64,000 nt of DNA from a virus: positions 1-64,000 of the IMG/VR virus record IMGVR_UViG_3300036832_000775; one strand, given 5' to 3'. Under the pieces are notes generated by a model that saw only the letters and a program-made list of their open reading frames with translations, searched no databases and was not told the origin of the DNA. Shown in pieces: positions 20,485-62,391 of the stretch (the first letter of the stretch is position 1; every line of letters begins with the position of its first letter). A program made the translations under genes and the position numbers.

Positions 20485-23400
20485 TCACTGCTTAACCGGG
20501 CTGCCGTCATAGTTGAACGCCTTGCCCGTCGTCTTGTTTGTCCAAACTCCAGTCTGATTGTCGTAGGTGTATTTCCCGCTAGGCAGCCCGGGCGGCCGGA
20601 CGCCCGAGCGAGCTTTCCGCAGAGAGACGGCATCGTCGATCTTGTTGTCCTTGACGAACTGATCGTCGTAGTCGCCCAGGCTGAGCGTAGTCGGGCGCTG
20701 GCCCTCCTTGGCGTGTCGCCACTTCATGTAGCCCTGGCCGTATTTGTCTTGGTAATCGAGGACGCCAAGCGCCTGCGCCAGGATGGCGCGGTTCGCCTCC
20801 GGCTCCAGCTCGGCGCTGGGCGAGGCCTGCTTGTAGGACGTGATCTCGGCGACGCGCGGGGTTCCCGGCATGGCCTTGACGGCGTCCATAATCATGGCCG
20901 TCGAGTTCTTGACGTACTCCTGGTAGCTGGAGGCCGTGCTCGGATCCAAGCCGACAGCGCCCGGGTTGAAGCCGGCCGCCTTGATGTAGCGGACGACATC
21001 AGCCTTCCAGTCTGCGCCAGCTCCCGGCTTGTAGCCGCTGTCGAGGAGCCCGATGAGCGCTTCCGCGCGCTGCGCGAGGACCGGCCGGCTGCGGAGCCCC
21101 TGGCGCACGTCGGCATCCTGTTCGGACGTCGCCTTGACGTCGGCCTCTGTCCCCGCCTCCAGGCCTTTCTTGATGCCGGCCGTCCTCGCTTCCCAGGACG
21201 CCTTCGCGGCCGCGATCATCGCGTTGCCTTGATCGATGTAGGAATTGCCGGCCGTGCCGCCGCCAATGTTCATGGCGCCGCCAAGCTTGATCCGCCGCAT
21301 CCCCTCTATGTAATCCGGGTCGGTTGTGTAAGTGCCGATGTCGGCCCCAGACGTGCCGGCCCCGGTCCTATCCCCAGCTCCTCCCGCGACCTTCGTCGGC
21401 GGAGCTCCGCCCCCACCCGTTCCAGATTGCCCCGCGCCGCCCGTAGGAGCCCCGCTGGCGCCCGTTCCCCCTCCCAGGGTAGGAATAGACGGGAGAGGAC
21501 CAACGCCCGTCCCTGAGCCTCCTGTGCTCCCTGTAGAGCCGTCGCCGACGTCGATGCCCGCATCACGGAAGGCCGCGATCTGGATTTTGGCCATGCGCTG
21601 CGCGATCTGGGTCTGGATGACCTTGAAATCGGCGTCCGCGCCATGCTCGCGCGCCTCGGCCGACAGATTGGCGATCTGCGCCTGATTGTAGTTCCAGTCC
21701 TTCTCCAGGCCCTGCATCTGGCCGAGGTACTTGTTCCCGGCCGCGAAGCCCTCGCCCATCTGTGTGCCGAGCCAGGGCGAGCGAGACGCCATCATCCCTG
21801 CGCCGACCGTCATCATGTAGCCGAACGGGTCGCGCTTCAGCTCATCGCCCAAGGTCGGAGGATGGCTCGGCTGCCCGCCGCCAGGAGGAATAGCAAACCC
21901 GCCGCCGTAGCCTTCCGTAGTGGCCACGGCAGGCTGCGCGCCAGCGCTTGGGACATCGGCGCCCCCGCCCGCGACCGAGACCGGCGAGGCCTTGCCAGAG
22001 CTCAGATAGGCCTGGGCGTACTTGTCGCCCTTCCACGGCGCGAGATTGACCCCCTTGCCATGGCTATACATCTGGTCGATCGCGAACTTGCCGACGCCCT
22101 GCCATTGGTTCGGGTCAGTCGGATCGTAGCCCGCCTTGCGCGCCTGATCCCCGAGCGCGCCAGGATGGATGTTCATCTGAAAATCGCCGAACGAGAACGG
22201 CTTGCCTCCCTCGACATCGACGGTCGATCCGCCGACGCCAGGAGCGTACAGCCCCTCGGCCTTCGCGACGCCGAGCGCGATGTTTGGATCGGCGCCGGGA
22301 TAGGTCTTGGTGATGTAATCGCGATACCAGGCGGCTCGCTGCGCAGGAGTCGTCGCTCTCCGATCAGACGGGACGCCGCCGCCTCCGCCTCCGCCGCCGC
22401 CTCCGCCTCCGCCTCCGCCTCCGCCCCCTCCGCTCGGAGCTGGGGCCGGCGCGGGCGCGGGCGCGGCCCCCGCAAACGGGTCTAACGCCTCTTCGATCGC
22501 CGCGTCGCCGCCCTCTTGAAAGTTACCGCGCAGGGAGCCAAGCCCTACGCCACCTCCAGTCGCGAAACCTGTATCAAGGTTGAAAGTGTCGTCAGGGAGA
22601 GCTGCGAAATCTCCCGACAGATCAGCGCCGCTGACGATATCGCTCGCCCCGCCGCCTCCGACGTCCCCGGCGCCTCCATCCGATCCCGTCGGCGTCGTCT
22701 GCGCCCCGCTCCGGTCCTTGAAGCCCGTCAGGACGGCGCCGGCCTGCTTCATCAGATCGCCAGGACTCCCCGGCTGAGCGCCGCTCTGGGGCTCTGGCGC
22801 TTTAGGCGCCTGGGCCTGCGGCGGACCTGGCCCCAGTCTGCCGCTGCTGCCGGACGAGGCCTCGATCGCCGCCAGGAACGGATCGATCGAACCGCCCCCC
22901 TCCGCAAAGCCCATACGGCCGCCGCCGCCGAACAGATCGCCGAACCCGCTCGCGGCCTTCGAGGTCGCGAAGGATCCGAGGCCTTCGCCCTGTGAGGTCT
23001 GGCCGGACATGCCGAAGCCCTGCGGCGTATAGCCGCCAGTGTTCTCGAGAGGCGAGGAGCCCATGACGCCGCCGCCGCCCTGGAAGTTAACCGGCCCACC
23101 AGAAGCCCGAACGGGAGCGCCGAGATAATCCTCACGCGGCGGGACCCAGCTCCCGTAATCGGTGTTCGGCGTCGGCCAGGAGCCATGGTTGCCAACGATG
23201 TCGGCGTAGTTGCTGAGATTGACGCGGCCTGGCCCGCCGGCTGGGTGAGCTCCTCTAGTCCGCGCGATATGCCGCGCCGCAGCAATCGCTGGGTGAACAG
23301 GCGCTTGAGCTCGAGCGTTCGGGCTGACCCCCGCGGCGACCGCGTCGCCAGGAACGTAGGTTGAGCCGCGCGCATTGCCGGTCGTTGGCACGAAGTGGCC

Positions 23401-26400
23401 GGCGGTGATCGGCGGCCCGCCCATGAGGCTCGTGACGTCGCCGCGATAGCCGCCTTGCCCAGACGCGCCGCTCAAGGAGCTTGCCGGAAGCGTCCCCGAC
23501 ATCGGCGCGGCGTCTCGCGACGGGACGTCGCCCCCGCTGTCATTGAAGGTGTCGAAGGTGTCGTCGCTAAGATTGGCGAATATCCTGTCGAGCCATCCGC
23601 CGCTCTGCGGCGGCGGCGCCCAGGTGCCGCCTGGGTCCGTCTGGCCGGGATAGGGCATGTTGCGAGTCTCGGCGGGACTGGACGTATCGCCGCCGTCGGC
23701 GCGGCCGATGCGGCCGCCCGTCCACTCGCTCTGGAAGCCCGCGCCTCCGCCATGGAAGGCCCCTGGCAGATCGAGCTCGTCATGATGCCACATGGGCGTG
23801 CCGAACTGATCGCCCTCCGGCGGCATGATCAGTTTCGGCCCGAAGGCGCCCCCCTCTGTGTGCCCAACCGCGTGTGGCGGGACCATCGGCATCGGGCGCG
23901 GAGGCGGCGGCTCGGGCGGCGGAGCCGGGAGCCTCAACGGAGGCTCATTAACCCTGCCTTCGATCGGCGGCTCGACCTCGGTCGACGGCGGACGGTACTC
24001 GGTCTCGCCGGAGAGCGGTCCGGGTCTGACCGCAGGAACACGGGACTGGGGCGGGGGCTCGGGAGGAGGCCCCCAGTTCATCGAATGCCCGCCATAAGGC
24101 TTCGTCTTCCAGGTCTCATCCAGCGGCTCTGGGGCCGGCTCGGGTGCCGGCGGCCGGACGACAGTAGGCGGGACGATCGGCGGCTGCCGGAGGAGCGGCC
24201 CATGCAGGGGATCGCCGGCTGCGCCAGATCCTGCCGGCCCCGGCGTCGGCCAGCCAGGATAGCGCGCTGTCGAGGGATGGTCCGGCTGCGGCGTGATGTC
24301 ATGAGGCTGACCCGTCACCGGATCATGCGCGATGACGCGAGGCTTCACGATGCCGCGCGAAGCCGCCGCCTGTGCTCGAGCTCGCCCCGCGAGCTGGCGC
24401 TGCACTGCGATGGCTGGCGGCGCCTGCCGCCCTCCAAAGAGGCCAGAGAGGTCGAGCGCAGTGTAGGTCGGAGGCGTGCGCCCCGAACCGGTCCCCGGTT
24501 GAAAGGTAGTGAAGCGGGGGAAACCGCCACGCTGGAAGCCGTCGCGCACGTTCGTCCCTCCGATCCCTCCGCCTGCCGATTTTCCGGGCTGGAACATGTG
24601 CGGCGTCGGTCCGCCATAAACATCGCTGTAAGAGTGCGCATAGCCAGGCATGCCCAGCTCGCCGAGGAACCGCCCCATGTCGTTGCCGGGGCCGACTTCC
24701 GCCCATTCCTGGCTCGTCCCACCGAGCGCCGCCTGCCTCATCGGCGACTGAGGCGCTGGCTGCGATGGCGGGGGCTGCGACAGCGTTTCAGTTCCTGCCG
24801 GAACCTTTCCAGGCGTGTAGCCGAACCCGCTGCCGGAGCCGAACCCGCCGCCGGCACTGCCGCCCGCGCCAGGATCGGCGATGCCGCCGCCTTGGAAGCC
24901 CGCCCGCCCGCCGTTGGCGTGACCCGTCATTGCACCGAGGTAAGCCTGCCTACTCGCAGGCGAGACGCCGGGGGGTGGACGTGGCGGCTGCCACTGCATG
25001 GGACCCCCCCAGCCCCCGCCGCTTGGGTTGTTGTGATTTGCGACCGGGTCGAACGTCGTCGGGACCCATTGGCCTTGCGGCTGGGCTGGCGCAGCGGCGG
25101 CCGGAGCGGCGGCCGGAGCGGCGGCGAGGGGTTTCATTTCGGTTCCTGCCGGGACCTTTCCGGGCGTGTAGCCGAACCCGCCGGCACTGCCGCCCGCGCC
25201 AGAGCCGCCCGAGCCACCACCTCCGCCGCCGAAGTATTGATTGGCGATGTCGCCGAGCTGGCCGCGAGACAGTCCGCCATATGTCGCGCCAGCTCCGCCA
25301 GGGATCCGCGCGCCCCCAATTGCGGGCGGACTCGTGATGCCTCCGGAGGGAGCGACCCCGCCGCTGCCCGAGCCCCCGCCGAAGAGACCCGCGAGAGAGG
25401 CCTCGGCCGAGCCGAATTGCGGCGACGAACCGAGGTCCTGCCAGTTTGGCGATGGCGAATTGGTGACGGGCGGCATCCACTGGCCGCCGCCGATCGCCAG
25501 CGGCGCGGTGAGATCGAACCCCAAGTAGGGGTTCTTAGAACCGCCGCTCCCCAGCTCCCAAACTGAGGCGGCCATACCAGAGGCTGGCCCCACCTCTTCT
25601 CCCGGGCTCCAGCCGCCAACATTCCCTGCCGGGTTCAACGCGCCGCCGCCCTGGAAACCTTGCCGCTCGCCGCCGGCCATACCGGATGGGCGCAACGGGA
25701 CAGTCTCAAAGCCGGGGTTAGGATGAACGTCGGCCCCGCTGGCGAGCGCCATCGAGCCTAAACCCATGCGCGCGCCAGGCACCCCCATCATCATCAGATC
25801 TTGCCCAGGCGAGCCGCCTCCGCCGCCGCCTCCGCCTGCCACACCGCCGAGCGAGCCCAAGCCGCCCATCGCGCCCATCATTTGCGCGCTGCCCATCGGC
25901 GCGCCGCCGGAAGCGAAGTGGCCGCGGTCGGCTGCCTCGTCGGTCGCGCCCTCGTAGTCGACGCCGAGGAGATCGCCAACGCCGATTCGCTTCACATTGC
26001 CAGGATCGCGGTAGGCCTCTTCCTGCGCCATGAGGCCGATCTGGGTGCGCGGGTCGCCGCGGAAGTTGTAGCGGTAGATTTGCTTGCCGTCGTAGGTCTC
26101 ACCGATCGGCTCGACGTTCTCTTTCGCGCGGATATCAGAGAGACCGAACAGGCTGCCGAGCATCCCCAGTCCCTGAAGCCCGGCACCGATCCCTTGGCCG
26201 ATCGTGTTCGGCGCCGGAGAAGTGGTCTGGCCCGAGGTTGTGCCGCCGGACAGGCTTCCTGTCCCCTCGACGATGTTCCCCAACCACCCCGTTGTCGTGA
26301 ACGGATACGCCTGCCCTTGCTGATACATTTGCTGGGCGGCTTGATCGATCGCCTGCTGTTCTTGTTGCGGGATCATCCCCGCCTGGATGTTCGCCTGCGC

Positions 26401-27054
26401 GCCCTGGAGCCCAGCCTGCTGAGCGGTCTGGCCGATCGATCCGAGCTGGGACGCTGCCGACAACTGGCGCTGGGCATTGGCTTGCTGCGCACCAAGATTG
26501 ATCCCTTGCTGGTTCTGCCAGTTGCTCATCGCCTGGTTGAAATTGGACTGGTTCAATCCCGCGATCGTCGGCGCCTCGGCGAGCTGCTGCTGATTGGCCA
26601 GGATCGATTGACCGATGCCAGCTCTGTCTCCGCCGAACGCGCCCGAGCTGATGTTCGCGCTGTTCAAGAATTGCGCTTGTTGTTGATTCTGATTGTTCAT
26701 CTCCGCGGTACTCGCGTCGATGACCGACTTCGTGAACGGGTTCATGAAGGGCTGGAGCGAACCCATGCCCTGGAATTGCGATGGGTTGACCGGGGCGGCA
26801 GCCCCCATCGTCATCGCGCCTGCAGCTCCAAGGTAGGGCTGCGCGGCATTCGCGTACTGACTGATCCCACCGACCCCCTGGAGCGTCTGACTCGAGAGCG
26901 GGGCGACGAGCTCGCCCTGGTAGGGTTGGTAGGGCTGATTGGCTACGTTCGTCGCGCGATCGACAAGGCCTTGGTACTCGGCCATCACCTGGGGCGGCGG
27001 CCCAGACGACGAGGTCGACGACGTCTGCTGAGTGCCTCCGCCCTTCGAGCCCAT
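20485..27054 (-). CDS. Giant internal virion (DNA transfer) protein with internal S74 domain and lysozyme-like domain
   Basis: MGSKGGG..YQPYQG..MNPF..GAFGGDR pilot-type N-terminus; SDIRAKENV..IGLMAQE; ALGVAKAEG..SFGDFQ. Confidence 0.8.
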   Translation of the reverse strand: MGSKGGGTQQTSSTSSSGPPPQVMAEYQGLVDRATNVANQPYQPYQGELVAPLSSQTLQGVGGISQYANAAQPYLGAAGAMTMGAAAPVNPSQFQGMGSLQPFMNPFTKSVIDASTAEMNNQNQQQAQFLNSANISSGAFGGDRAGIGQSILANQQQLAEAPTIAGLNQSNFNQAMSNWQNQQGINLGAQQANAQRQLSAASQLGSIGQTAQQAGLQGAQANIQAGMIPQQEQQAIDQAAQQMYQQGQAYPFTTTGWLGNIVEGTGSLSGGTTSGQTTSPAPNTIGQGIGAGLQGLGMLGSLFGLSDIRAKENVEPIGETYDGKQIYRYNFRGDPRTQIGLMAQEEAYRDPGNVKRIGVGDLLGVDYEGATDEAADRGHFASGGAPMGSAQMMGAMGGLGSLGGVAGGGGGGGGSPGQDLMMMGVPGARMGLGSMALASGADVHPNPGFETVPLRPSGMAGGERQGFQGGGALNPAGNVGGWSPGEEVGPASGMAASVWELGSGGSKNPYLGFDLTAPLAIGGGQWMPPVTNSPSPNWQDLGSSPQFGSAEASLAGLFGGGSGSGGVAPSGGITSPPAIGGARIPGGAGATYGGLSRGQLGDIANQYFGGGGGGSGGSGAGGSAGGFGYTPGKVPAGTEMKPLAAAPAAAPAAAAPAQPQGQWVPTTFDPVANHNNPSGGGWGGPMQWQPPRPPPGVSPASRQAYLGAMTGHANGGRAGFQGGGIADPGAGGSAGGGFGSGSGFGYTPGKVPAGTETLSQPPPSQPAPQSPMRQAALGGTSQEWAEVGPGNDMGRFLGELGMPGYAHSYSDVYGGPTPHMFQPGKSAGGGIGGTNVRDGFQRGGFPRFTTFQPGTGSGRTPPTYTALDLSGLFGGRQAPPAIAVQRQLAGRARAQAAASRGIVKPRVIAHDPVTGQPHDITPQPDHPSTARYPGWPTPGPAGSGAAGDPLHGPLLRQPPIVPPTVVRPPAPEPAPEPLDETWKTKPYGGHSMNWGPPPEPPPQSRVPAVRPGPLSGETEYRPPSTEVEPPIEGRVNEPPLRLPAPPPEPPPPRPMPMVPPHAVGHTEGGAFGPKLIMPPEGDQFGTPMWHHDELDLPGAFHGGGAGFQSEWTGGRIGRADGGDTSSPAETRNMPYPGQTDPGGTWAPPPQSGGWLDRIFANLSDDTFDTFNDSGGDVPSRDAAPMSGTLPASSLSGASGQGGYRGDVTSLMGGPPITAGHFVPTTGNARGSTYVPGDAVAAGVSPNARAQAPVHPAIAAARHIARTRGAHPAGGPGRVNLSNYADIVGNHGSWPTPNTDYGSWVPPREDYLGAPVRASGGPVNFQGGGGVMGSSPLENTGGYTPQGFGMSGQTSQGEGLGSFATSKAASGFGDLFGGGGRMGFAEGGGSIDPFLAAIEASSGSSGRLGPGPPQAQAPKAPEPQSGAQPGSPGDLMKQAGAVLTGFKDRSGAQTTPTGSDGGAGDVGGGGASDIVSGADLSGDFAALPDDTFNLDTGFATGGGVGLGSLRGNFQEGGDAAIEEALDPFAGAAPAPAPAPAPSGGGGGGGGGGGGGGGGGGGVPSDRRATTPAQRAAWYRDYITKTYPGADPNIALGVAKAEGLYAPGVGGSTVDVEGGKPFSFGDFQMNIHPGALGDQARKAGYDPTDPNQWQGVGKFAIDQMYSHGKGVNLAPWKGDKYAQAYLSSGKASPVSVAGGGADVPSAGAQPAVATTEGYGGGFAIPPGGGQPSHPPTLGDELKRDPFGYMMTVGAGMMASRSPWLGTQMGEGFAAGNKYLGQMQGLEKDWNYNQAQIANLSAEAREHGADADFKVIQTQIAQRMAKIQIAAFRDAGIDVGDGSTGSTGGSGTGVGPLPSIPTLGGGTGASGAPTGGAGQSGTGGGGAPPTKVAGGAGDRTGAGTSGADIGTYTTDPDYIEGMRRIKLGGAMNIGGGTAGNSYIDQGNAMIAAAKASWEARTAGIKKGLEAGTEADVKATSEQDADVRQGLRSRPVLAQRAEALIGLLDSGYKPGAGADWKADVVRYIKAAGFNPGAVGLDPSTASSYQEYVKNSTAMIMDAVKAMPGTPRVAEITSYKQASPSAELEPEANRAILAQALGVLDYQDKYGQGYMKWRHAKEGQRPTTLSLGDYDDQFVKDNKIDDAVSLRKARSGVRPPGLPSGKYTYDNQTGVWTNKTTGKAFNYDGSPVKQ

Positions 27055-43615: not shown

Positions 43616-44673
43616 GATCGCGCTCCCAACATCTTGCCGCGACCCTGCGCATCAAGCAGCTCGGCGGCGTATTCCTCATCAGTCATGCCCAGGACGTCGC
43701 GCGCATGCTCTCGCTGGCGAGGGGTGAGAGAGACTGGCGTCCCGCGGATCCGGCCCGTGCGCAGGCTCGGCGCTTCAGCTCGAGCTGGCGCGCCCATGCT
43801 GCGCGCTTGACCCATCTGGCGCTGGCCCTGGCGCGTCATTGGCGACATTTGCCCTCCCATGGCCTCTTCAAGCTTCTCTTCCAGCTTCTCGAAATAGGCG
43901 TCTGTTTCCGGAATCAGGCCCAGCGAGTTGGTGACGTAGTTGTGCGCGCCGTCGACCCGATTGATGCCGGCGCGGTCTTTGACCATTTCGGGGTGCGATC
44001 GGATCCAGGCGGCGCTTTTCGGGAAGCCAGTCCGATCGAGGTGACTCGAGAGCGTTTGGACGTTCCCCTGCATCTGCTGTGCAGGGTCGACGTATCCTGG
44101 TTGGCGCGGCTGCGGCTGCGGTTGCTGCCGTTGCTGCTGCGGTTGCTCGGTTGAGAGCCCCTCGCGCATCTCCATTAGCCGCAGCAAATTCGCGCGGCTG
44201 TCCGAAATCATGATTTGGGCTTCTGACGCGGCCTTGTGGTCGCCGCGATCGAGCGCTTGCTGGAAATAGACCCGCGCCTGTTCGGAATCGCGCTTCGCGC
44301 CCTCGATCGCCTGGTCGACCATCGAGACATTCGAGGTCGCGAGCCCGCGCTCGGCCTGGATGCGCGCCTGGTGCTCGGCTTGCGCCACCTGGGCGGCGCG
44401 CTGCGCTACGTTTTGCTGGTACGCGAGCTGCCGTTTCAGCTCGGAGACGCCATCGTCCTCCGGCGCAGGCTCCGGCGAGGCGCGCATCGGCAGCTCGCCC
44501 TCGCCGCCGGCCCCATTCGAGCGCAGATCCGGCTTTTTGTCGCCCTTGCGGACCGTCTCGCCGGCAATGACAGTTTTCGGCGGCAGCCGCTCCTCGGGCG
44601 GAATGTCGTCGTCTTCGATAAGCGAGCCGAAAGCGGTCTGCTGTTCGGGGTCTTCTACTTCTCGCACTGCCAT
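43612..44673 (-). CDS. Scaffolding protein
   Basis: acidic coiled coil; C-terminal VSLTPRQREHARDVLGMTDEEYA; start MAVREV. Confidence 0.75.
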   Translation of the reverse strand: MAVREVEDPEQQTAFGSLIEDDDIPPEERLPPKTVIAGETVRKGDKKPDLRSNGAGGEGELPMRASPEPAPEDDGVSELKRQLAYQQNVAQRAAQVAQAEHQARIQAERGLATSNVSMVDQAIEGAKRDSEQARVYFQQALDRGDHKAASEAQIMISDSRANLLRLMEMREGLSTEQPQQQRQQPQPQPRQPGYVDPAQQMQGNVQTLSSHLDRTGFPKSAAWIRSHPEMVKDRAGINRVDGAHNYVTNSLGLIPETDAYFEKLEEKLEEAMGGQMSPMTRQGQRQMGQARSMGAPARAEAPSLRTGRIRGTPVSLTPRQREHARDVLGMTDEEYAAELLDAQGRGKMLGARS

Positions 44674-45080
44674 CAGAACACCGCGTCCGGGTGGCCTAGC
44701 TTGCCCTTGATGTAGACGTCCGGAATCAGCCTGCACTCACGGTCACCGATCATGCACTTGAGACCGTCAGAAGCCCGGTAGACCACCCAGTCCCCAGGCG
44801 TGACGTCTTGTCCGTAAAACTTGACCGGGCCGTCATCGACGAAGGCCCGCAGCCCCTTCTTGAGGACCATGCCGACCTTGCCCTGGTAGCGGTCCTCATC
44901 GACCGCTTCGTCGGCGATCTGCAGACCGCTCGCCGTATGCGTCGCCGGCCGGATGTAGATCGCGACGAGCACTTGCTGGTTCATCGGCTCGACGATCTCG
45001 AGATCGGCGCCGACGGCGTTCCAGATGACGTCGCGAGGGTCCTCGACGTGTATGGTTCGGAGTCTATGATGCGCGGGCAA
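44673..45080 (-). CDS. GroES-like co-chaperonin
   Basis: EPMNQQVLV..TASGLQI..GMVLKKG..VTPGDWVVY..G. Confidence 0.8.
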   Translation of the reverse strand: MPAHHRLRTIHVEDPRDVIWNAVGADLEIVEPMNQQVLVAIYIRPATHTASGLQIADEAVDEDRYQGKVGMVLKKGLRAFVDDGPVKFYGQDVTPGDWVVYRASDGLKCMIGDRECRLIPDVYIKGKLGHPDAVF

Positions 45081-46972: not shown

Positions 46973-47191
46973 ATGATGGCACAACTTCCCCCGCCGGATC
47001 ATCCGGCCTGGCAGCAATGGGCGCGGACGAGCCCGGTCCTCGCCGGCATGCTTCAACGCGGCGACCCGCTCACGCGCGGCACCTGGCTGCGGCGCAGTTA
47101 TGTGTTCGATGAAGTTCCTGACCCCGTGCCCCCCGAGGTCGAACAGCAGATGCCGCCGCCCTTCCGGCAGCTAAATGAGGATCAGGGCTGA
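46973..47191 (+). CDS. Small counter-oriented protein, possible immunity partner
   Basis: own promoter and RBS; converges on the C-terminal domain of the 1343-aa gene. Confidence 0.65.
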   Translation: MMAQLPPPDHPAWQQWARTSPVLAGMLQRGDPLTRGTWLRRSYVFDEVPDPVPPEVEQQMPPPFRQLNEDQG

Positions 47192-50100
47192 CCACCCGCG
47201 GGCCGGAAGGTCCCAAACCAGCGCGGATCCCTGATCCTCTCGCCGTTCGGCCCCAAGATCGCATCATGGGCCTGATCCATCGTCATCTGGTTGTTCTGGT
47301 AAGCCCGCCAGATGCCGTTGGTGATGTCGGTTTGAGACGTAAAGTTCTTCTTTAGGTTCGTCTTGGCGCTCTTCTCTCCCGGCGTCCATCTGCCACGAAG
47401 CGCTTCCCAGGTGATCGATTGCATTTCGCGCGGCAGGATCCCCGCCTTTTCAGCCGCCCTGCGATAGGCCTCGGCGACGAACGGATAAAAGCCCTGGGCG
47501 CCAGTCTCGTTATGCGTCGGGCTGGCCGCCCCCATGCCAGACGCCGCCTCCGGCGCGCCCGCGCCCAGCGGACGTAGGAGAGCCGCCGCCACAGCGTGCG
47601 TGTCGCTGGTGACGTCGCCCTTCCGCGACCATGGCGCGATGATGTTGTTGAAGAACGAGCGCACTTTGTGGCCGCCGCCGAGCGCCTCTGAAATATCGCC
47701 CATGCTCTGAGCATGAAACGCCCGGATGGCGTTTGCGGCTTCGTTGGTCGAGCCCCACGAGACCGGGATTGGCTGGCCCGCGACGTTCTTATATTCATCG
47801 CTGTAGGCGGCGTTCACTCCGTCGTGGGTCCCGTCCGGATTGTTGATGTAATAGCCGTACTTGCGGTCGCCCTTGTCATCGATCCAATGCAGGGGCTCTC
47901 CCTTGGCTATTTCAATCTGCCTGCCGCCAGCGCCCTGCCATTTATAATCCGCATCGCTGATCGGCATCAGATGATCCGGCGGCCCGTGCGCCTCGTAATA
48001 GGCGCGCGTGTAGAACGCCTTCTGTTCTGGGGTCATCTGACTCCAGGGCTTCCCGGCGACCTCGTCGAGCTGGCGGAGAACGTCCTGCTGACTGACACTG
48101 TTCGGGGACATCACCTCGCCAGTTTTGGCGTTGTATCGCGTCTCCTTGCCAGTCGCCTGGTCGACCTCAACCCGCTCCGGATCCTTGCGAAGAGCGTAGC
48201 GATTCACCCAGTCGGTCATATCCCCGGTCATCGTGGCGTCTGGCGCGGTCGTTCCGGCGGTATGCGCGACCCAATCCGCGAGCGTGACGTTCTGATCCCA
48301 GTCTTTCTGCGGCGACATTGCCGCCACAACGCCGGCTGCGTTCTCGTGCGGGATATCGTGGGTCAACGCGATATCGCGCGATCGGCCGTGCGCGCCCTCG
48401 TACCAGAGACGAGAACCGTTCTTCACCGCATCGCTTATTCGCTGGTAGAGACCGCTGATATTGTCGGTCATGTGCCCGATTAAGGCCTCATGGATCTCCG
48501 CATCGGTCGCGCCAGGCGCCACCTTGATGAAGGGGATCTTGCCGCTCCGGACCATGTCGGCGACGGCCTTGCCGTATCTCGGCCCCGCTTGCTTCACTAG
48601 GTCCATGCCGACGTGCGCGTCGTTGTTCGCGTGGGCGGCCTGTTCGGCCTCGATCGGCGCATTTGGGTCATCGTTCCACGGGACCGAGGTCCCGACCCGG
48701 CTCTCGGGGAACTCTGGGTCGATATGTCGTTTGACGCCGTTGATGTCCAAGACCTGGGCGCGAGGCGTTGCCGCGGCCGCCGAGACGTCAGACCCGGCAC
48801 CGCCCAGGCGTGGCGCAGCTGCCTCCGGCACCCCATGCATGCCCATCGTCAGGTCACCGCCGAGCATCGGGTCGGATGCCAGCTCACTGCCAGCGCCATA
48901 AATGCCTTTCGCGAGATTCGCCTCGGTCTCTGGGCTCATCGTGCGCCAGCCGAACGCCGGGAACGGATCCGCGATAGTGCCAGCGATAGCTTTGGAGCCG
49001 AACTCGCCGGCCTTGCCGGCCGCGTAATCGAGGCCGCTCACTCCAGCGCTCACCTCGTCTCCCAGGGTCTTGCCCCATCGGCCGTACCAAGTTGTCGGCT
49101 CGGTCGGAGCTGCCTCCGGCTGCGGATATTGCTCGGGGTGCGCTTGCCGGAATTGCTCCGCCTGGGCCTCTTGCTGCGCTCGAGCTTGAGCGTTCGCCGT
49201 GAACGCATCCTGGCTCTGATCGTCAGGAGCTCCGCCGGCCTGGAAGCCATGGCGCGGCTGCATCAGCAGCTCGAGGCGACGGCGCAGGGCTTCGCTCTCA
49301 GAGACGCTGCCGCCGGCCGCGCGCGGCAAGATGTCCTGGCCCCAGCGCCAGCGGCCAGGCGAGCCCCACCACTGCATCGAGCGGGGCGCGCGCTCCATTT
49401 CGGCCGGATGGAAGTCGCGGCGCACGTCCATTGGCAAACCAAACCGGCCTTCGCCGGTATTGGCCGCCTGGACCTCGCCCGCGCTAGTGCCGTAGGCCAT
49501 GCCCTTCGCGGTCTCGATTAGCTCAGCGCGCGGCTTGCTCTTGTATTCCTTCTGGTTGAGCAACCACAGAAGCGCTTTTTGGCCAGGTGAGCCTTGTTGG
49601 TGCACCCCCTGCACATTCGGATTGGTGCCAGGAGGCCAGCCTTCGATATCTTGGACCGCATGCTGGCCTTCGTGAGCGAGCGTCGGGTAGGCCTCCCCGG
49701 GCGGCATGTCGGCGTTCAGGACGAAAGCCTTGGCGTCACGGTTGTAGCCGCCGAGGACGTCGCCCATGTGCTCCTTGCCGAGGAACCGGACCGGCATGTC
49801 GGCGAGCTCGGGGTAATTCTCGTAGAGCTCGGGGTGCTCGTAGACCTCCGACAATTTGTAGACGTCGCCAGGGCGGCCCCATTTTGAGTAGTCCGGCGGG
49901 TGAGTTGGGTCGGCGATCTCGGTATGCCAGTTGCCTTCCGGATCCTGGCCCCAGACATGGCGGTTCCAGACGTCGTAGGGGTGATCGCCGGCCTGCAGGC
50001 CCGCTTTCGCGGCGGCGAGGGCGTCGCGATCGACGTTTCGAGCGCCCGTGCCCAGGAACATCGCGCCGATCGGCGCGACCGAATGCGCGATCGTGGGCGC

Positions 50101-51213
50101 AGCTGCGTGCAAGGCGGGAGCGACGAACTTACCGACGTCAGGGACCGCGCCAACGCCGGACAGGGCGGCCTGGCCATAGTCGCCTTCGCTCCCATAGTGG
50201 TAGGCGTCAGCGCCGGACAGGACCTGGCCGCTGATGGGCGCGTAGTTCGCGACCGTCGAGGCGAGGGTCCCAAGGCCCCGCGGGCCGCCCATGCTTTCCG
50301 CGCCGGTTTCCAGCCCATGCTGAAGGCGTTCGGACGGAGGGAGGTCGGCGGGGCCGATCGTCCCGATGCCGCCCTGCGCCAGGATGTCCTTCGAGGTCAT
50401 CGGCGGCGGCGCGTCGGGGACCTGGGCTCCAGCGTCTGGATCGACCTCGCCCAGGTCGGTGACGCCGCCGTCCTGATAGTCGATGCGGCCGCCGGCAGCT
50501 CGCGTCGCGAAGGCGTCAGGGTCATGCCAGCCTGGCCCCTGTTCCCGGCCGACGAAGGTCGTATTGCCGATCTTCTCGCGGTTCAGCGCGGCGAGCGGTC
50601 CCGCCCAGCTCGGCGGCCGCGGCATGACCCCGTAATAATGGGTGGCGCCATAGGTCGGATCTGGGGTCGCGCCGCTGTAGACCTTGTCGACGAGGCGGCC
50701 GATGCGCGCGTAGTCACCAGGCCGATCGCGCTGCAGCGTATTGATCGTCGGCTGGCCTTCTGTCGCGCGGCCGGTGTTCCATGGAGAGAACTCATGGTAG
50801 CCGAGGCGCGGATTGACCCCTTCAGCCGGGGCCTTGACGACGCCCTCGATGCCTTGGCCGTAGCCGCCAGATCTGACCCGGTTAAGGATGGCGTGCGTGA
50901 CGCCGGCCTTGCCGAGCTCGGGCTCGCCTCGAGCCTCACCGTAGACGGTCTTGACCAGGAGATCGCGGTCGCTTGGGCTCAGCGGCGGCGGATTCCAGCC
51001 CAGCGGGGGCGCTACGGGATAGCGCGCGTCTCCGCCAATGCCGGAAGGCGGTTGAGGCTGCCTGGAGGCGAGCCGGAGCTCATCTGGAGGAGCTGAAAAC
51101 GGATCGTGGTCGACTGGCGCGACGTCATAGTCGTTCGGCGACGACGCCATCGAGCCGAAAGGGTTCCCCTCGACCGGATCAACGTCATAGTCGCCGAGGT
51201 CGCTACCCGCCAT
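47182..51213 (-). CDS. Polyvalent virion protein: SleB-like cell-wall hydrolase, LPD23-like HExxH domain, DUF7178-like (HhH-glycosylase-like) domain
   Basis: TVYGEARGE..ILNR..EFSPWN..GATHYY; HPELYENYPEL..LAHEGQHAVQDIEG..GEVQA; WY..AAMSPQKDW..KVRSFFNNI..DTHA..AY..A..MQSITW. Confidence 0.8.
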   Translation of the reverse strand: MAGSDLGDYDVDPVEGNPFGSMASSPNDYDVAPVDHDPFSAPPDELRLASRQPQPPSGIGGDARYPVAPPLGWNPPPLSPSDRDLLVKTVYGEARGEPELGKAGVTHAILNRVRSGGYGQGIEGVVKAPAEGVNPRLGYHEFSPWNTGRATEGQPTINTLQRDRPGDYARIGRLVDKVYSGATPDPTYGATHYYGVMPRPPSWAGPLAALNREKIGNTTFVGREQGPGWHDPDAFATRAAGGRIDYQDGGVTDLGEVDPDAGAQVPDAPPPMTSKDILAQGGIGTIGPADLPPSERLQHGLETGAESMGGPRGLGTLASTVANYAPISGQVLSGADAYHYGSEGDYGQAALSGVGAVPDVGKFVAPALHAAAPTIAHSVAPIGAMFLGTGARNVDRDALAAAKAGLQAGDHPYDVWNRHVWGQDPEGNWHTEIADPTHPPDYSKWGRPGDVYKLSEVYEHPELYENYPELADMPVRFLGKEHMGDVLGGYNRDAKAFVLNADMPPGEAYPTLAHEGQHAVQDIEGWPPGTNPNVQGVHQQGSPGQKALLWLLNQKEYKSKPRAELIETAKGMAYGTSAGEVQAANTGEGRFGLPMDVRRDFHPAEMERAPRSMQWWGSPGRWRWGQDILPRAAGGSVSESEALRRRLELLMQPRHGFQAGGAPDDQSQDAFTANAQARAQQEAQAEQFRQAHPEQYPQPEAAPTEPTTWYGRWGKTLGDEVSAGVSGLDYAAGKAGEFGSKAIAGTIADPFPAFGWRTMSPETEANLAKGIYGAGSELASDPMLGGDLTMGMHGVPEAAAPRLGGAGSDVSAAAATPRAQVLDINGVKRHIDPEFPESRVGTSVPWNDDPNAPIEAEQAAHANNDAHVGMDLVKQAGPRYGKAVADMVRSGKIPFIKVAPGATDAEIHEALIGHMTDNISGLYQRISDAVKNGSRLWYEGAHGRSRDIALTHDIPHENAAGVVAAMSPQKDWDQNVTLADWVAHTAGTTAPDATMTGDMTDWVNRYALRKDPERVEVDQATGKETRYNAKTGEVMSPNSVSQQDVLRQLDEVAGKPWSQMTPEQKAFYTRAYYEAHGPPDHLMPISDADYKWQGAGGRQIEIAKGEPLHWIDDKGDRKYGYYINNPDGTHDGVNAAYSDEYKNVAGQPIPVSWGSTNEAANAIRAFHAQSMGDISEALGGGHKVRSFFNNIIAPWSRKGDVTSDTHAVAAALLRPLGAGAPEAASGMGAASPTHNETGAQGFYPFVAEAYRRAAEKAGILPREMQSITWEALRGRWTPGEKSAKTNLKKNFTSQTDITNGIWRAYQNNQMTMDQAHDAILGPNGERIRDPRWFGTFRPAGGQP

Positions 51214-51379
51214 CAGCCATCTCGAAACCGGCCCGCTCGTAGAGGAAATCGTCGAGCGGCGTGTACTCGTCGTCGTCCCAATAGTGGGACAGGTCGATCC
51301 ATTCCTTGACCCATTCCCAGAGCTTCGCTGCGCCGTAATTCGCTTCTAGGGCCGCGAGCATCCCAGATTCGTCGCTCAT
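51203..51379 (-). CDS. 58-aa acidic Trp/Tyr-rich protein (absent from ORF track)
   Basis: ATGA overlap with portal stop; MSDESGMLAALEANYGAAKLWEWVKEWIDLSHYWDDDEYTPLDDFLYERAGFEMADGG. Confidence 0.55.
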   Translation of the reverse strand: MSDESGMLAALEANYGAAKLWEWVKEWIDLSHYWDDDEYTPLDDFLYERAGFEMADGG

Positions 51380-54186
51380 TTTCGTCGGATTCTGAAGTAC
51401 TGGCCCGTGCGAGGATGCTGGACGTAGAACTCGCCGTCCGGCGCGCGCCGCGCGAGCCCGTAAGGCGTGTCGATATGATGCTGGACCGAGCCGCCGGCCG
51501 CGCGTTGCGTTCTCGAGCTCGAGCTCGCCGGTCTCGGCTTCGCTTTCACCTCCTGCAGGCGCGCGCGATGCTCTTCCTGGCCCATCTGGGCCTCGTGCCG
51601 CTCTTCGCGCTGCGTGACCTGGTCCTCGTGAGCCTGTTCTTGCTGACCCATCGAGCGCTCGTGCGCCTGGGTGCGGTCCGTCATCATCGATTCATGCTGT
51701 CGGCCGCGCTCTTCGCGCTGCGATTCCATCTGCTGTTCGCGCGCGCCCATCACTTGCTCATGCTGACGGTCCTGCGCGCCCATGACCATGTCGGTCTGCG
51801 CCTTCTGCGCGCCCATCACGCGATCGTGCATCTGTTCTTGCTGGCCCATCTGGGCCTCATGCTGGCGATCGACCGCGTGCAGCTGCTGTTCGTGCGCCCA
51901 ACCGCCTCTCTCGAGGTTCATTTCGTGCGCCTGGTCGCGCAATTGCGTCGCGGTGTCATGCGCGCGATCGAACTGGTTCTGCTGACCCTCGAATTGCTGC
52001 TTCTGCCGTTCCATGAGCGGCTTCCGCGCCTCGTTGGAGGCCTGCGCATGCGCCGTTTGGGTCGCGAGCTGCTGTTTCTGCAGCCCCATCTTCGACGTCG
52101 CGATCTTCACTTGCGCGTCGACCATATGTTGCTGGTTGTCCATCGGCACGTTTTGCTTGTCGAGCTCCAGCTGACCGGCCTTTGTCTGCGCGTCGAGCAT
52201 CGAAGCCTGCCCGGTGAGCATTGCAGCTTGCGCTTTCGGATCCGGCGGCGGCCCTTGCGGCACTGGGTTCAAGTACTGATCCGGGTTCGCGAACCCGATT
52301 CCGCGAATGCATGTGCGGCGAATCACCAAGACGTTGAAAGCGCCAGGCTCATCCTTCGCCATTTGATAAAGAGCCGCATTCCTCAACATGCGCTGCAGAT
52401 GCGAGGCCGTGTTTGGGTCGGCCTTGGTGACGATCGAGTTCTCGTTGATCGCCTGCAGGAATAATTGCTCGTCCCACGAGAGGTTCGCCGGCATCTGAGG
52501 GCCGGAGCTCGCCTTCTTCTTCTGACGCCGGACCGTGCGCAGGAAGGATTCGGGATCCTCGCGGAAGCGATCGACCAGGAGCTGCAGCTCATCGCTCTGC
52601 GCCGCGCACAAGCGCTTGTGGGTCGCGAGGAGCGGTTTGATGGCTTGTTCGATTAACGCCAAGGTCGTGCCAACCGGGGCGTCCTGTCGCCCCTCGCCAA
52701 CCATCACCTCGGCAGTCCCTCCGAGGCTCTTGCCCTGTTCATTGAGCTGCTGAACGAAGCCCACCCAGACCGCGTCGGGGCTGCGGTAGGGCATGCCCAT
52801 TGCGACTTGCTGGATCGGTAGTCCGCCAGTCTCGACTTCAGCCGAGCCGCCTGGCGGAATGCGGAATATGTTGTTATTCTGTCTAGCGGCCCCCTTGGCA
52901 ACTAGAAGCCCTGGGAAATTGGCGAACATGCCAGCATCGACGATCTCTCGCCAAGCAGCGGTTATGCCATTAGTAATATTGCCAAGTAGATGAGACAGCC
53001 CAATAGCATAAAATCCGAACCCACGGATAAAGGGAAACTGGACAAAATAGGTCTTGGGCAGACACATTTCGTCGTCTTCATTGTAGTTTCTTCTGAGCTC
53101 GACGATTGTTCTTGTCTCTCTGTGTATGACGGCCTTGTAGGGGACCGCCAGGCCGTCAGGTGATCCGTCGGTCTCATGCTCGAAGCCATCGAGGTCCAGC
53201 TCGCAGTAGGTCTCCAGAAATTCGTGTTCGCGATCGTCTTGCTCCCAGCTGTCGTATTTACGCACGCCGGAGATTTGCTCGCTCTGCAGCTCGGTCGCTG
53301 ACTTCTCGATGTAGCCTGGCGTGGATAGGTCGACGTCGCGCCAGGCGCCGCAGATCTGCATGCGCTTGACCATCGAAGGGCGCATAAACACGCGGTGCGT
53401 GATCCGGCCCGCATCGTAGATCGAGGTTGCGCTATTGTTGACGATCAGGTCATCGCCAAACACCGCGCGAGAGATTGGCCGGCGGAGGATCGGATCGTGG
53501 CACACCTTCTTGAAGACGCATCCATCGAGCCCCACGCGCAACAACATCTGATCTGTGTCGGGAATCCAGGGCTTGTCGACGACGGTCAGATAGTGATTGA
53601 GATCGTGCTCCAGAGCGTCGGCGAGGTCGTCGAGTGCTGGAGTCGCGCCCGCCGTGTCCTCGGAGACTTTCGCGGGTCCGTCGGTTGGGCAAAGTTCAGC
53701 GAAGGCATTGGCCCCGAATCGTATCACTGCCTCCGCCAGTAGCGTGGCGCGGATCTGCGATTGACCTTCGAGCGGAGCTGAGCCCTCGGAGCCGCTCGAT
53801 CGCATCGATTCGATGCGCAGGCCCATGAGCTCCATGCCGCGAGCTCGCGTGTCGAGCCATTCACGGCGTGATTCGTTGTCTTGATCGATTAGGCGGATGA
53901 GCTCGTCGGCGAGTCCGTTGAGCTGCGTGTCGGGGAGCACCTCGGCGAGGTTATCGTCGAACTCGGTGTCTTCCTTCGCGATGCGCGGCGGCCCGATATA
54001 GACGATGACGCCGCCGTCATCGGTCTCGATCTTAGTGGCTTTGTCGTAATCGATGCCGCCGTCATCGTCTGAGAGGTCGACGTCCCTCGGCGTGAAGAGA
54101 CTCGACATGTCGTCGTCGTCATCAAAGCTGCCGTCAATAGGGCTCGGCGGCAGCCTGATCGCCCCAAGACCACCGAGCCCAGCCAT
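51376..54186 (-). CDS. Portal protein (P22-like) with long C-terminal extension
   Basis: FDDNLAE..D.ESRREW..LAEAVIRF..GCVFKKV..GFGFYAIGL..DAG..N..APVGTTLAL. Confidence 0.88.
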   Translation of the reverse strand: MAGLGGLGAIRLPPSPIDGSFDDDDDMSSLFTPRDVDLSDDDGGIDYDKATKIETDDGGVIVYIGPPRIAKEDTEFDDNLAEVLPDTQLNGLADELIRLIDQDNESRREWLDTRARGMELMGLRIESMRSSGSEGSAPLEGQSQIRATLLAEAVIRFGANAFAELCPTDGPAKVSEDTAGATPALDDLADALEHDLNHYLTVVDKPWIPDTDQMLLRVGLDGCVFKKVCHDPILRRPISRAVFGDDLIVNNSATSIYDAGRITHRVFMRPSMVKRMQICGAWRDVDLSTPGYIEKSATELQSEQISGVRKYDSWEQDDREHEFLETYCELDLDGFEHETDGSPDGLAVPYKAVIHRETRTIVELRRNYNEDDEMCLPKTYFVQFPFIRGFGFYAIGLSHLLGNITNGITAAWREIVDAGMFANFPGLLVAKGAARQNNNIFRIPPGGSAEVETGGLPIQQVAMGMPYRSPDAVWVGFVQQLNEQGKSLGGTAEVMVGEGRQDAPVGTTLALIEQAIKPLLATHKRLCAAQSDELQLLVDRFREDPESFLRTVRRQKKKASSGPQMPANLSWDEQLFLQAINENSIVTKADPNTASHLQRMLRNAALYQMAKDEPGAFNVLVIRRTCIRGIGFANPDQYLNPVPQGPPPDPKAQAAMLTGQASMLDAQTKAGQLELDKQNVPMDNQQHMVDAQVKIATSKMGLQKQQLATQTAHAQASNEARKPLMERQKQQFEGQQNQFDRAHDTATQLRDQAHEMNLERGGWAHEQQLHAVDRQHEAQMGQQEQMHDRVMGAQKAQTDMVMGAQDRQHEQVMGAREQQMESQREERGRQHESMMTDRTQAHERSMGQQEQAHEDQVTQREERHEAQMGQEEHRARLQEVKAKPRPASSSSRTQRAAGGSVQHHIDTPYGLARRAPDGEFYVQHPRTGQYFRIRRK

Positions 54187-61892: not shown

Positions 61893-62391
61893 CGCGCTCG
61901 ACCTTGGCATGCTCGCCCTCAATCATCACTGGATGTCCCGCCAACGGCCGCAAAGCCCGCTCCAACTCAATCAGCTGCGGCACACTCAGCCGGCTCAAAT
62001 CCGGCCCATCTTCCCGATCCCCACGCGGCGCCGCCCAAATCGCACCCCCGCGCCGCTCTAACCAAAACTTCGCCATCCCAGGATCAGCCTGCCGCCAATT
62101 CTTCTCCGGACCCCCTACCCCCATCAAATACGCCGACTGCGCCATCTCATTCGTCCGCCTCGCGTCCCCCTTAATCATGCAATCCCGATACCGCCGATAC
62201 AGCCGATCCGGCGCCAATCCCGTCAGCAGGGAGATCTGCGCCGCTCCCAACCCGTTCGCACTCATCTCCTCAATCGAACGCTCCATGTCCGCAGCCGCAG
62301 CCCGACGCTTCAACGCCAAAGCCGCCGAACGCTCCGACGTCCCCGCCGCCCGCGGTCTCAAATTCTTTAATGACGTCTCGGATACGGACAT
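61783..62391 (-). CDS. terS: Terminase small subunit
   Basis: SLKNLRP; HTH-like; MAKFWLERRGG..W; DLSRLS; directly upstream of terL. Confidence 0.75.
   Translation of the reverse strand: MSVSETSLKNLRPRAAGTSERSAALALKRRAAAADMERSIEEMSANGLGAAQISLLTGLAPDRLYRRYRDCMIKGDARRTNEMAQSAYLMGVGGPEKNWRQADPGMAKFWLERRGGAIWAAPRGDREDGPDLSRLSVPQLIELERALRPLAGHPVMIEGEHAKVERDAESRGGGGGVDAAGIGGESDRGVGEHHDGSGEVSG

Follow-up and report, generated by a model that had tools for sequence, protein, structure and literature searches.

The 64,000 nucleotide stretch of viral DNA considered here (the window) comprises positions 1 to 64,000 of IMG/VR record IMGVR_UViG_3300036832_000775, a sequence of 72,948 bases from an uncultivated virus that is 93 % complete by CheckV. 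Our subject is a single large gene on its minus strand, the product of which (P0001) is probably a polyvalent internal virion protein built from exchangeable enzyme cassettes. The open reading frame (ORF) begins with ATG, and this start agrees with the N-termini of related proteins, which read MxxDLGDYDV. Upstream of P0001, 162 bases away, is a portal gene; the large terminase gene is at 60249–61922, and tail-fibre genes are found farther down on the same strand as P0001. A preliminary description, made from the sequence alone, had proposed that this ORF encodes a cleavable polyprotein in which enzyme domains are separated exactly by GG motifs, and the ORF and all of the features that it named were found within a few bases of where it had put them. 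The observation is thus confirmed, and the interpretation placed on it is partly supported. The features of the locus are as follows.

47182..51213, minus strand: P0001, predicted polyvalent virion/ejection protein (ORF of 1343 residues with homologues)
51376..54186, minus strand: portal gene, 936 residues, directly upstream of P0001 (phrog_1216, E 6.8e-15)
51079..51213, minus strand: N-terminal leader, residues 1–45, xDLGDYDV plus two copies of DYDVxPV[ED][GH][ND]PF (family conservation)
50542..51006, minus strand: predicted SleB/CwlJ-type lytic transglycosylase domain, residues 70–224 (Pfam, model, fold matches)
50449..50502, minus strand: junction A, residues 238–255, RAAGG / GGRIDYQDGG / VTDLG (family pattern, low-confidence stretch of the model)
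50071..50409, minus strand: N-terminal extension of the zincin module, residues 269–381, starting PPPMTSKD (conservation)
49330..50070, minus strand: predicted LPD23 and zincin metallopeptidase domain, residues 382–628 (model, HEGQH, fold matches)
49231..49323, minus strand: junction B, residues 631–661, RAAGG-SVSESEA-LRRRLELLMQPRHG-FQAGG (family pattern)
48757..49230, minus strand: linker or extension, residues 662–819, with a conserved TWYGRWG (low model confidence, mostly 27–40; kept in relatives)
47194..48756, minus strand: DUF7178 module, residues 820–1340, with a predicted HhH-GPD-glycosylase-like fold (Pfam, model)

Structures were predicted as two AlphaFold2 models built with family alignments, one of residues 1–700 and one of residues 661–1343, and comparisons across the family draw on 202 homologues that passed E<=1e-3 in a pool of 8000 scored candidates; the best 120 of these, together with P0001, make up a set of 121 family proteins. 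Confident folds are predicted for residues 70–224, 382–628 and 820–1340, with low confidence for most of 661–820. The first of these is the wall hydrolase, for which Pfam Hydrolase_2/SleB matches residues 96–220 (E 1e-10; 42.6 bits against a cut-off of 27), the predicted local distance difference test score (pLDDT) is 76–96, and the best fold matches are 4f55 (Z 12.5, root mean square deviation 3.5, 119 residues aligned, 31 % identity) and 4fet (Z 12.4), with a Foldseek probability of 1.00. Glu93, within the motif YGEA, is invariant across 20 aligned sequences, and we take it to be the catalytic glutamate. By profile and fold the domain is clearly of the SleB lytic transglycosylase type, an activity that we predict for it, and the SleB-like assignment of the preliminary description is borne out.

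The second fold, with pLDDT 82–98, carries HEGQH at residues 514–518 (49660–49674) and a candidate third ligand, Glu580, in AGEVQAAN, so that the model presents the HExxH helix, the downstream glutamate and the overall fold expected of a zincin. Its structural matches have modest Z scores (PprI/IrrE 6.0, SPRTN 5.4, VgrG2b 5.4, lethal factor 5.3, minigluzincins 5.0), and CapP is also among the site-specific zincins that it matches. The earlier call of an LPD23-like HExxH domain holds, with the corresponding Pfam scores under their cut-off of 27 (LPD23, residues 385–435, 24.5 bits; DUF6782 metallopeptidase, residues 480–530, 22.2 bits); in its zincin relatives P0300 and P0261, LPD23 scores 70.9 and 108.9 bits. 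Relatives of the zincin number 3719 at E<=1e-3, ranging from stand-alone proteins of 300 residues to polyvalent giants of 7000 residues, with up to 10 copies, and have the consensus HExQH...GExxAR. The extension that precedes the domain (residues 269–381) has a pLDDT mostly below 50, with helices at 70–73, and it accompanies the zincin in P0008–P0011 and P0013.

The C-terminal module is matched by Pfam DUF7178 (PF23802) at residues 1159–1275 (102.1 bits against a cut-off of 27, E 4.6e-29) and by phrog_3842 (E 5.2e-31), and its fold is predicted with a pLDDT mostly of 80–97. The motifs WYEGA, SPQKDW, HKVRSF (residues 1182–1187, 47653–47670), SDTHA (residues 1203–1207, 47593–47607) and QSITWE are all present, and 45 columns are invariant in an alignment of 38 sequences, among them H1182, K1183, R1185, D1204, H1206, R1262 and E1270. 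An exhaustive structural alignment (VIA) placed only HhH-GPD enzymes or QNG1 in its top 22 rows, with Z scores from 7.9 to 3.7, including 3n0u (Z 7.9, root mean square deviation 4.0, 189 residues aligned), 7ugk (7.6), 1xqp (6.6), 8a5g (6.1) and 2abk (5.6). When the sequences are set in register by eye, ALGGGHKVRSFFNN...SDTHA of P0001 stands opposite ALPGVGRKTANVVLN...VDTHI of Escherichia coli Nth (endonuclease III), and K1183 and D1204 face K120 and D138, which we take to be the catalytic residues of that enzyme; unsupervised hhalign gives the same K1183/D1204 register, at a probability of 0.2–0.5 % that lends it no statistical support.

Several results weigh against an assignment to the HhH-GPD enzymes. 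The best VIA Z score of 7.9 is middling by the tool's own scale. PF00730 had no match at E<=10 in the phage genome, whereas 14 of 14 control genomes gave matches, and hhalign returned 0.1 % against E. coli Nth and 0.2–0.5 % against 15 Nth sequences, the Nth profile having been built from relatives at 86–99 % identity only and being too shallow for a good profile. A profile search of PDB sequences with DUF7178 found no glycosylase, Foldseek found nothing at E<=1e-3 when the model was compared with the PDB, the BFVD structure search of the C-terminal model returned only uncharacterized phage proteins of the same family, and the ESM Atlas returned only DUF7178 viral clusters for this part. Membership at the sequence level was rejected on the results with PF00730, the PDB profile search and hhalign, and we therefore describe the module as looking like, rather than being, a base-excision enzyme. 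Of the preliminary description, the DUF7178 assignment holds, and the HhH-glycosylase-like label survives as a predicted likeness of fold and fails at the level of sequence.

The likeness to endonuclease III/HhH-GPD proteins and to the queuine-salvage enzyme QNG1 (DUF2419) consists of the predicted fold together with the family-wide invariance of K1183 and D1204; unlike HhH-GPD enzymes, DUF7178 spans about 520 residues with large insertions and a beta-rich insert, lacks an iron–sulphur cluster motif and has no statistical sequence similarity to them. We note that P0001 contains no cysteine in its 1343 residues, so that an iron–sulphur cluster in the glycosylase-like module is excluded; this composition would also fit a protein that has to unfold and refold during ejection. 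No publication naming DUF7178 was found in the literature searched, and the glycosylase-like fold with its conserved Lys/Asp pair is a first functional lead for the family, the module being one that, judged from the model, may work like a base-excision enzyme.

The boundaries between these modules are marked by two related segments. Junction A consists of an end-of-module motif followed by a start-of-module motif, with RAAGG at residues 238–242 and GGRIDYQDGG at residues 241–250 (50464–50493), and it lies within a stretch of low pLDDT (225–275; most of 225–381 is below 50). Junction B keeps the two ends of junction A but has them separated by a basic helix: RAAGG at residues 631–635 (49309–49323) and FQAGG at residues 657–661 (49231–49245) flank an isolated helix at 639–651 (LRRRLELL), and pLDDT is below 50 at 629–638 and 652–668. 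The claim that each boundary carries a paired motif is correct in that each has a pair of GG, the RAAGG and FQAGG reported separately being the two ends of a single motif of about 30 residues (motif B). Placement of the motifs inside folded domains would have told against their role as boundaries, and none was so placed: both junctions fall in low-confidence linkers, and in the family as a whole all 36 strict motif occurrences are outside the phmmer alignments to the three domains.

Within P0001 alone the glycine motifs are unremarkable. The protein has 14 GG where 18.6 are expected from its composition, and four of these (at 116, 488, 1096 and 1179) are inside confidently folded domains; AGG occurs 5 times against 2.4 expected, [FY]x[DEQ]GG once against 0.18 expected (a count reached by 332 of 2000 shuffles), and a repeated 5-mer such as RAAGG is present in 698 of 1000 shuffles. 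Neither plain GG enrichment nor the RAAGG repeat goes beyond chance, and both were rejected as signals. The proposal that GG motifs separate the domains stands for the extended motifs, which are in the low-pLDDT linkers, and falls for plain GG, which is unspecific; the junction motifs gain their significance solely from how they are conserved and placed among the relatives.

Motif A, GG[RG][IV][GD][FY]x[DNSQE]GG, is present in 11 of the 121 family proteins, and motif B, L[RQ][RQ]R[LI]...[FYLQ]x[..]GG following an xGG, in 23, always just ahead of the last module; 30 proteins have one or the other. Motif B corresponds to motif A with a basic helix of about 20 residues, PVQLNxxLRRRLxLxxxPRH, placed between the first GG and G[FY]xDGG, and the conserved extended forms are GGR[IV]G[FY]xDGG and GG..LRRRL..PRHGFxDGG. 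Among the 34 closest proteins [FY]x[DE]GG was observed 28 times against 2.7 expected. The usual continuation past the second GG is (G)VTDLGxxD, which resembles the true N-terminus of these proteins, MxxDLGDYDV. When the P0001 gene itself was compared with 50,697 phage records, megablast gave no match, and tblastn gave partial matches alone, at no more than 40 % identity, in 13 records.

The modules between the motifs are exchanged freely. DUF7178 is the common module, and its partners by Pfam vary among Hydrolase_2, LPD23, ART-PolyVal, GNAT, NUDIX, SLT and other LPD domains, such that the 34 closest proteins have 23 different architectures; insertion, loss and permutation at the motifs are all seen, as would be expected if homologues swap domains there. 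The order hydrolase-A-zincin-B-DUF7178 is found in P0001 and P0009 and the order zincin-A-hydrolase-B-DUF7178 in P0003. P0002, P0004 and P0005 have hydrolase-B-DUF7178 without a zincin, the hydrolase tail ...GYAGGG running straight into motif B; P0006 and P0013 have zincin-(A)B-DUF7178 without a hydrolase; and P0008, P0016 and P0026–28 have different last modules. The zincin cassette of P0001 resembles an insertion, with RAAGG on either side of it and GCCGGCGGC shared at the DNA level. In a small comparison of ten non-identical gene versions, the share of unchanged residues that also keep their codon is 0.54 for motif B, 0.60 for a block of 45 hydrolase residues and 0.74 for the N-terminal leader.

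Two parts of the locus are constant around this exchange. The position just after the portal, which the preliminary description had remarked on, is real: in 16 of 17 close IMG/VR loci the upstream portal is conserved (76–85 % identical), the seventeenth ending at a contig edge. Farther afield, the DUF7178 gene is downstream of the portal in 6 of 10 distant loci tested, where the portals represent three additional PHROG families; of the upstream ORFs in the other four, three have no PHROG match and one is a protease/capsid fusion. In the cultured roseophage CRP-738 the DUF7178 gene is behind the portal with one small ORF between. The second constant part is the leader, which is 77–94 % identical in 15 of 16 close loci scored (51 % in L017), regardless of the cargo behind it. 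Its repeat copies are at residues 13–19 (51157–51177) and 33–39 (51097–51117), its pLDDT is below 50 within a low-confidence stretch covering residues 1–68, and its PV[ED][GH][ND]PF element reappears internally, downstream of a GG motif, in P0004, P0007, P0014, P0017 and P0034.

We note that the N-termini of the distant short DUF7178 proteins (L024, L027, L028, L029 and P0120) are rich in Pro and Gly and contain NP[LF] or NAL repeatedly, examples being GNPLMQDP, DNPLLQGG with DNPLMSPQ, GNPLLQQQ and GGGNPFQQF. They are reminiscent of the paired xNPF/xDPF repeats in the leader of P0001; judged from sequence, such repeats may serve the DUF7178 family generally as an N-terminal signal. A 2A-like ribosome-skipping motif was considered for VEGNPFG and dropped, as the NPGP core is absent. 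Motifs of the 2A type are not known to work on bacterial ribosomes.

The extended motif is also present in a second, unrelated giant protein of the same phage, with the following features.

20485..27054, minus strand: P0308, second giant virion protein, 2189 residues (N-terminus matching phrog_4287 'DNA ejection protein', E 2e-25)
23689–23718, minus strand: GGRIGRADGG in P0308 (pattern match)
22894–22923, minus strand: GGRMGFAEGG in P0308 (pattern match)

The pattern GGRxG[FYR]x[DEQ]GG, taken from the P0001 family with R added as the third choice after P0308 had been read, occurs twice in P0308 against 0.0005–0.001 expected, and none of 2000 shuffles reached two. Looser copies are GGRAGFQGGG and GGPVNFQGGGG, and two copies are followed by a DPF motif. 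The looser pattern is found in seven of eight P0308-related loci (L043–L050), with counts reached by 0 of 500 shuffles in six of them and by 1 of 500 in the seventh. Two further giant polyvalent proteins that are unrelated, P0300 (2633 residues) and P0261 (2472 residues), contain [FY]A[DE]GG 7 and 4 times against about 0.15 and 0.14 expected, and these copies adjoin, and do not lie within, LPD23/zincin, topoisomerase IB, Hydrolase_2 and ART domains. In P0300 we also observe an LPD23/zincin joined with a bacterial type IB topoisomerase domain.

The explanation that we favour, and regard as probable, is that P0001 is a polyvalent internal virion (ejection) protein made of exchangeable cassettes that are punctuated by peptide-level GG signals. 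Its gene fills the slot directly behind the portal gene. Each cassette opens with a short acidic head, xDLG...(PVxxxPF), and closes with a glycine-bracketed tail, either GG-R-[IV]-G-[FY]-x-D-GG or the same ends around the basic helix of about 20 residues, LRRRL..PRH. The cassettes here are a SleB-type transglycosylase, an LPD23/zincin with an intact HExxH and the usual C-terminal DUF7178 with Lys and Asp at the positions of the endonuclease III catalytic pair. The GG motifs would act as peptide-level signals in flexible linkers, kept by purifying selection, and would be read by one common partner during virion assembly or ejection; it is the combination of their place in flexible linkers, purifying selection and sharing with P0308 that points to such a partner.

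A number of points weigh against this explanation. Low pLDDT is no proof of disorder in the linkers. In the distant DUF7178 proteins P0035–P0121, [FY]x[DE]GG is found 8 times against 7.9 expected, so the signal is limited to a clade or patchy rather than family-wide. The strict patterns were set after the family had been inspected, and only the P0308 test is therefore independent of their definition; among the P0308-related loci, moreover, L048 lacks the motif. The modules, the places and conservation of the motifs, the exchange of cassettes, the link with the portal and the sharing with P0308 are observed; packaging, ejection and every enzymatic activity of P0001 are properties that we infer for an uncultivated phage, and the common partner is postulated.

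What the signals would do is a further question, and the answer that survives best, at odds that fall a little short of even, is that they dock or hinge a string that stays uncut. Cleavage of P0001 at the GG motifs by any protease is a possibility to which we give slightly less credence. The tails of the SleB-like proteins, the mimicry of the N-terminus and the sharing of the motif would fit cleavage, and would equally fit docking or hinge signals derived from once-separate virion proteins. A search for shorter forms bears on both: it found 36 stand-alone SleB-like proteins, and the anchor sequence is present in 31, 20 of which end 2–9 residues past a GG in a short tail; among the shorter proteins no gene ends exactly at a junction GG. 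P0122, which stops in the middle of the motif, is probably a contig-end artefact.

If the chain is cut, the agent would most plausibly be a separate phage or host protease that recognizes [FY]x[DE]GG and trims both P0001 and P0308, although we consider this unlikely as an account of the motifs. It would explain why P0001 and P0308, though unrelated, share a motif with each other and with their relatives, and it agrees with selection on the peptide and with the stand-alone SleB-like proteins that end just past GG. Proteases specific for Gly-Gly are known, namely adenain, ASFV pS273R, coronavirus PLpro and the C39 bacteriocin-leader peptidases, all of which are cysteine proteases. Like the viral polyproteins and leader peptides cleaved after Gly-Gly, P0001 has a hydrophobic residue shortly before a GG at the boundary of a functional unit; unlike them, its aromatic residue is at the fifth, not the fourth, position before the would-be cut, and C39 and C48 were not found in its genome. 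More broadly, peptidase families S78, S77, S49, C39 and C48 had no match at E<=1 in the 72,948 base genome and no protease was named by PHROG and Pfam scans of the head module, in a genome that is 93 % complete and has many ORFs belonging to no known family, among which an unrecognized protease may be encoded. In P0054 and P0067 the motif is at residues 3–7, where cutting would be pointless since only a few residues would be shed, and the conserved 20-residue basic helix of motif B exceeds what a cleavage site needs.

That P0001 processes itself, its own zincin cutting at the GG motifs to free a wall hydrolase, a peptidase and a DNA-acting enzyme, is improbable. The preliminary description had inferred release of the cassette as separate effectors; zincin processing of polyvalent proteins is a published hypothesis rather than a new inference, and the main text of the paper concerned gives P1 DdrB as a processed example (PMC5512222). 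In its favour, HEGQH is intact, a GE..A helix downstream of it is conserved and the zincin fold is predicted with confidence; the domain has motifs on both flanks, and the sequence after the GG is like a genuine N-terminus. However, only 9 of the 30 motif-bearing proteins have a zincin, the other 21 keeping their motifs with neither a zincin nor any HExxH, so that the embedded peptidase is probably not what reads the motif in general; the motifs are missing from 2 of the 11 relatives that do have a zincin, and P0308 and its relatives have the motif and no zincin recognized by Pfam or PHROG scans. The linkers are at pLDDT 28–45 in the model of residues 1–700, with neither junction confidently placed, and a complex prediction of the zincin (376–630) with junction B (622–668) and zinc gave a score of 0.28, the mark being 0.32, and counts for neither side. 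The same main text also lists N4 vRNAP, ArdC and TraC1 as having such peptidases and yet travelling unprocessed (PMC5512222).

It is similarly doubtful, and by our estimate marginally more so, that the motifs are generic flexible glycine-rich linkers kept by common descent with no specific partner. Such linkers would explain the lack of GG enrichment in P0001, the flexibility predicted for the junction regions and the fact that the motif is no commoner than expected in distant DUF7178 proteins; but conservation extends beyond the glycines to the aromatic and acidic positions and to the whole LRRRL..PRH helix, and the motif recurs in non-homologous proteins. Finally, DNA-level recombination linkers or gene-fusion scars without a function as peptides would account for module exchange exactly at the motifs, for the direct RAAGG repeat around the zincin insert and for the GCCGGCGGC shared as DNA, but are very improbable, as the motif B peptide is kept while its synonymous sites have drifted about as far as those of the enzyme domain (in the small codon sample given above), which argues against a pure recombination linker, and as the same peptide occurs with different codons and contexts in the unrelated P0308, P0300 and P0261.

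Large proteins of the T7 gp16 type are packaged in the head, have a peptidoglycan-cleaving domain and are ejected before or with the DNA. P0001 differs from them in that its wall enzyme is of the SleB type (Hydrolase_2) and not of the SLT type and is joined to a peptidase and a glycosylase-like module, and in that it is encoded away from the other ejection gene, that of P0308. By its domain content P0001 is a polyvalent protein in the sense of Iyer, Burroughs, Anand, de Souza & Aravind (2017, PMC5512222), who described a widespread class of injected multi-enzyme proteins in phages and conjugative elements. For these the main text proposes processing by an embedded zincin, with P1 DdrB processed and N4 vRNAP unprocessed, and lists the PF07486 wall hydrolase as an occasional component. 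P0001 unites a SleB-type hydrolase, a zincin and DUF7178 in one polypeptide of a viral record, and its zincin, with the thousands of relatives counted above, corresponds to a hub domain, LPD23 itself scoring under its cut-off. Unrelated chemistries in one chain, a zincin hub, an LPD domain and a virion-gene context are thus shared with the polyvalent proteins; unlike those in the main text of PMC5512222, P0001 has DUF7178 as its constant module, a slot right behind the portal and conserved start and end peptides. That main text makes no mention of glycine, linker, boundary, disordered or LPD23, and the supplementary domain lists of the paper may name the module or its linkers; among the matches listed in a literature search for FADGG-type motif strings, none was on phage proteins.

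A 2811-residue polyvalent protein (gp47) has been detected by proteomics in phi24B virions, its processing not being addressed in the part of the preprint available to us (bioRxiv 10.64898/2026.04.10.717836); that protein and P0001 are both very large polyvalent proteins, the one seen in virions and the other known from its sequence. The MuF/SPP1 gp7 minor head proteins, characterized in part in the main text of PMC5512222, are also similar in that the gene directly follows the portal and a conserved module is fused to variable effectors that are presumably packaged or delivered. Unlike them, P0001 has a glycosylase-like constant module, and its most constant part within the close clade is the 45-residue N-terminal leader; Phage_Mu_F (PF04233) was not among the P0001 Pfam matches at E<=1, and gene position alone is alike.

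The general kind to which P0001 belongs, a polyvalent and possibly processed virion protein, is already known. Apparently new are the portal-adjacent DUF7178 subfamily, the start and end peptides that bound its cassettes, the sharing of these with a second ejection protein and the glycosylase-like DUF7178 fold. For the processing hypothesis of 2017 the locus supplies a concrete conserved signal at module borders, with G250/V251 and G661/A662 as candidate bonds. A more speculative extension, which we think rather unlikely, is that GGRxG[FY]xDGG / [FY]A[DE]GG is a processing or sorting code of phage polyproteins in which a factor cuts after the second GG, and that DUF7178 is delivered by the virion as an enzyme of the base-excision type, with host or modified DNA as its substrate; were this so, each freed enzyme would bear the same xDLG head and GG tail, and the cleavage grammar would be defined. 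The locus can also be regarded as a natural cassette system, in which near-identical phages differ in the enzymes that are encoded behind one and the same portal, and as such should be useful for understanding the turnover of counter-defence functions and for engineering phage-delivered cargo.

Some additional features of the window merit comment. Near the N-terminus of P0308, residues 306–345 (26020–26139, minus strand) match Peptidase_S74 'chaperone of endosialidase' (E 6.4e-5; 23.6 bits, cut-off 22). In tail spikes this domain cleaves itself, and by analogy P0308 may be autoprocessed at this place. The G+C content rises to 0.69–0.71 at 22000–26000, compared with about 0.62 elsewhere in the window, in step with the middle part of P0308, which is rich in Gly, Ala and Pro. 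The portal protein is unusually long at 936 residues; its PHROG match is confined to residues 206–503, leaving a large N- and C-terminal remainder without assignment, and it has no Pfam match. The ESM Atlas yielded nothing usable for the 377-residue neighbour downstream of P0001. Within the head module, an ORF of 135 residues at 44673–45080 (minus strand) is GroES/Cpn10-like (Pfam Cpn10, E 9.2e-7; phrog_3188, E 5.5e-8) and may encode a phage co-chaperonin for the folding of capsid or internal proteins.

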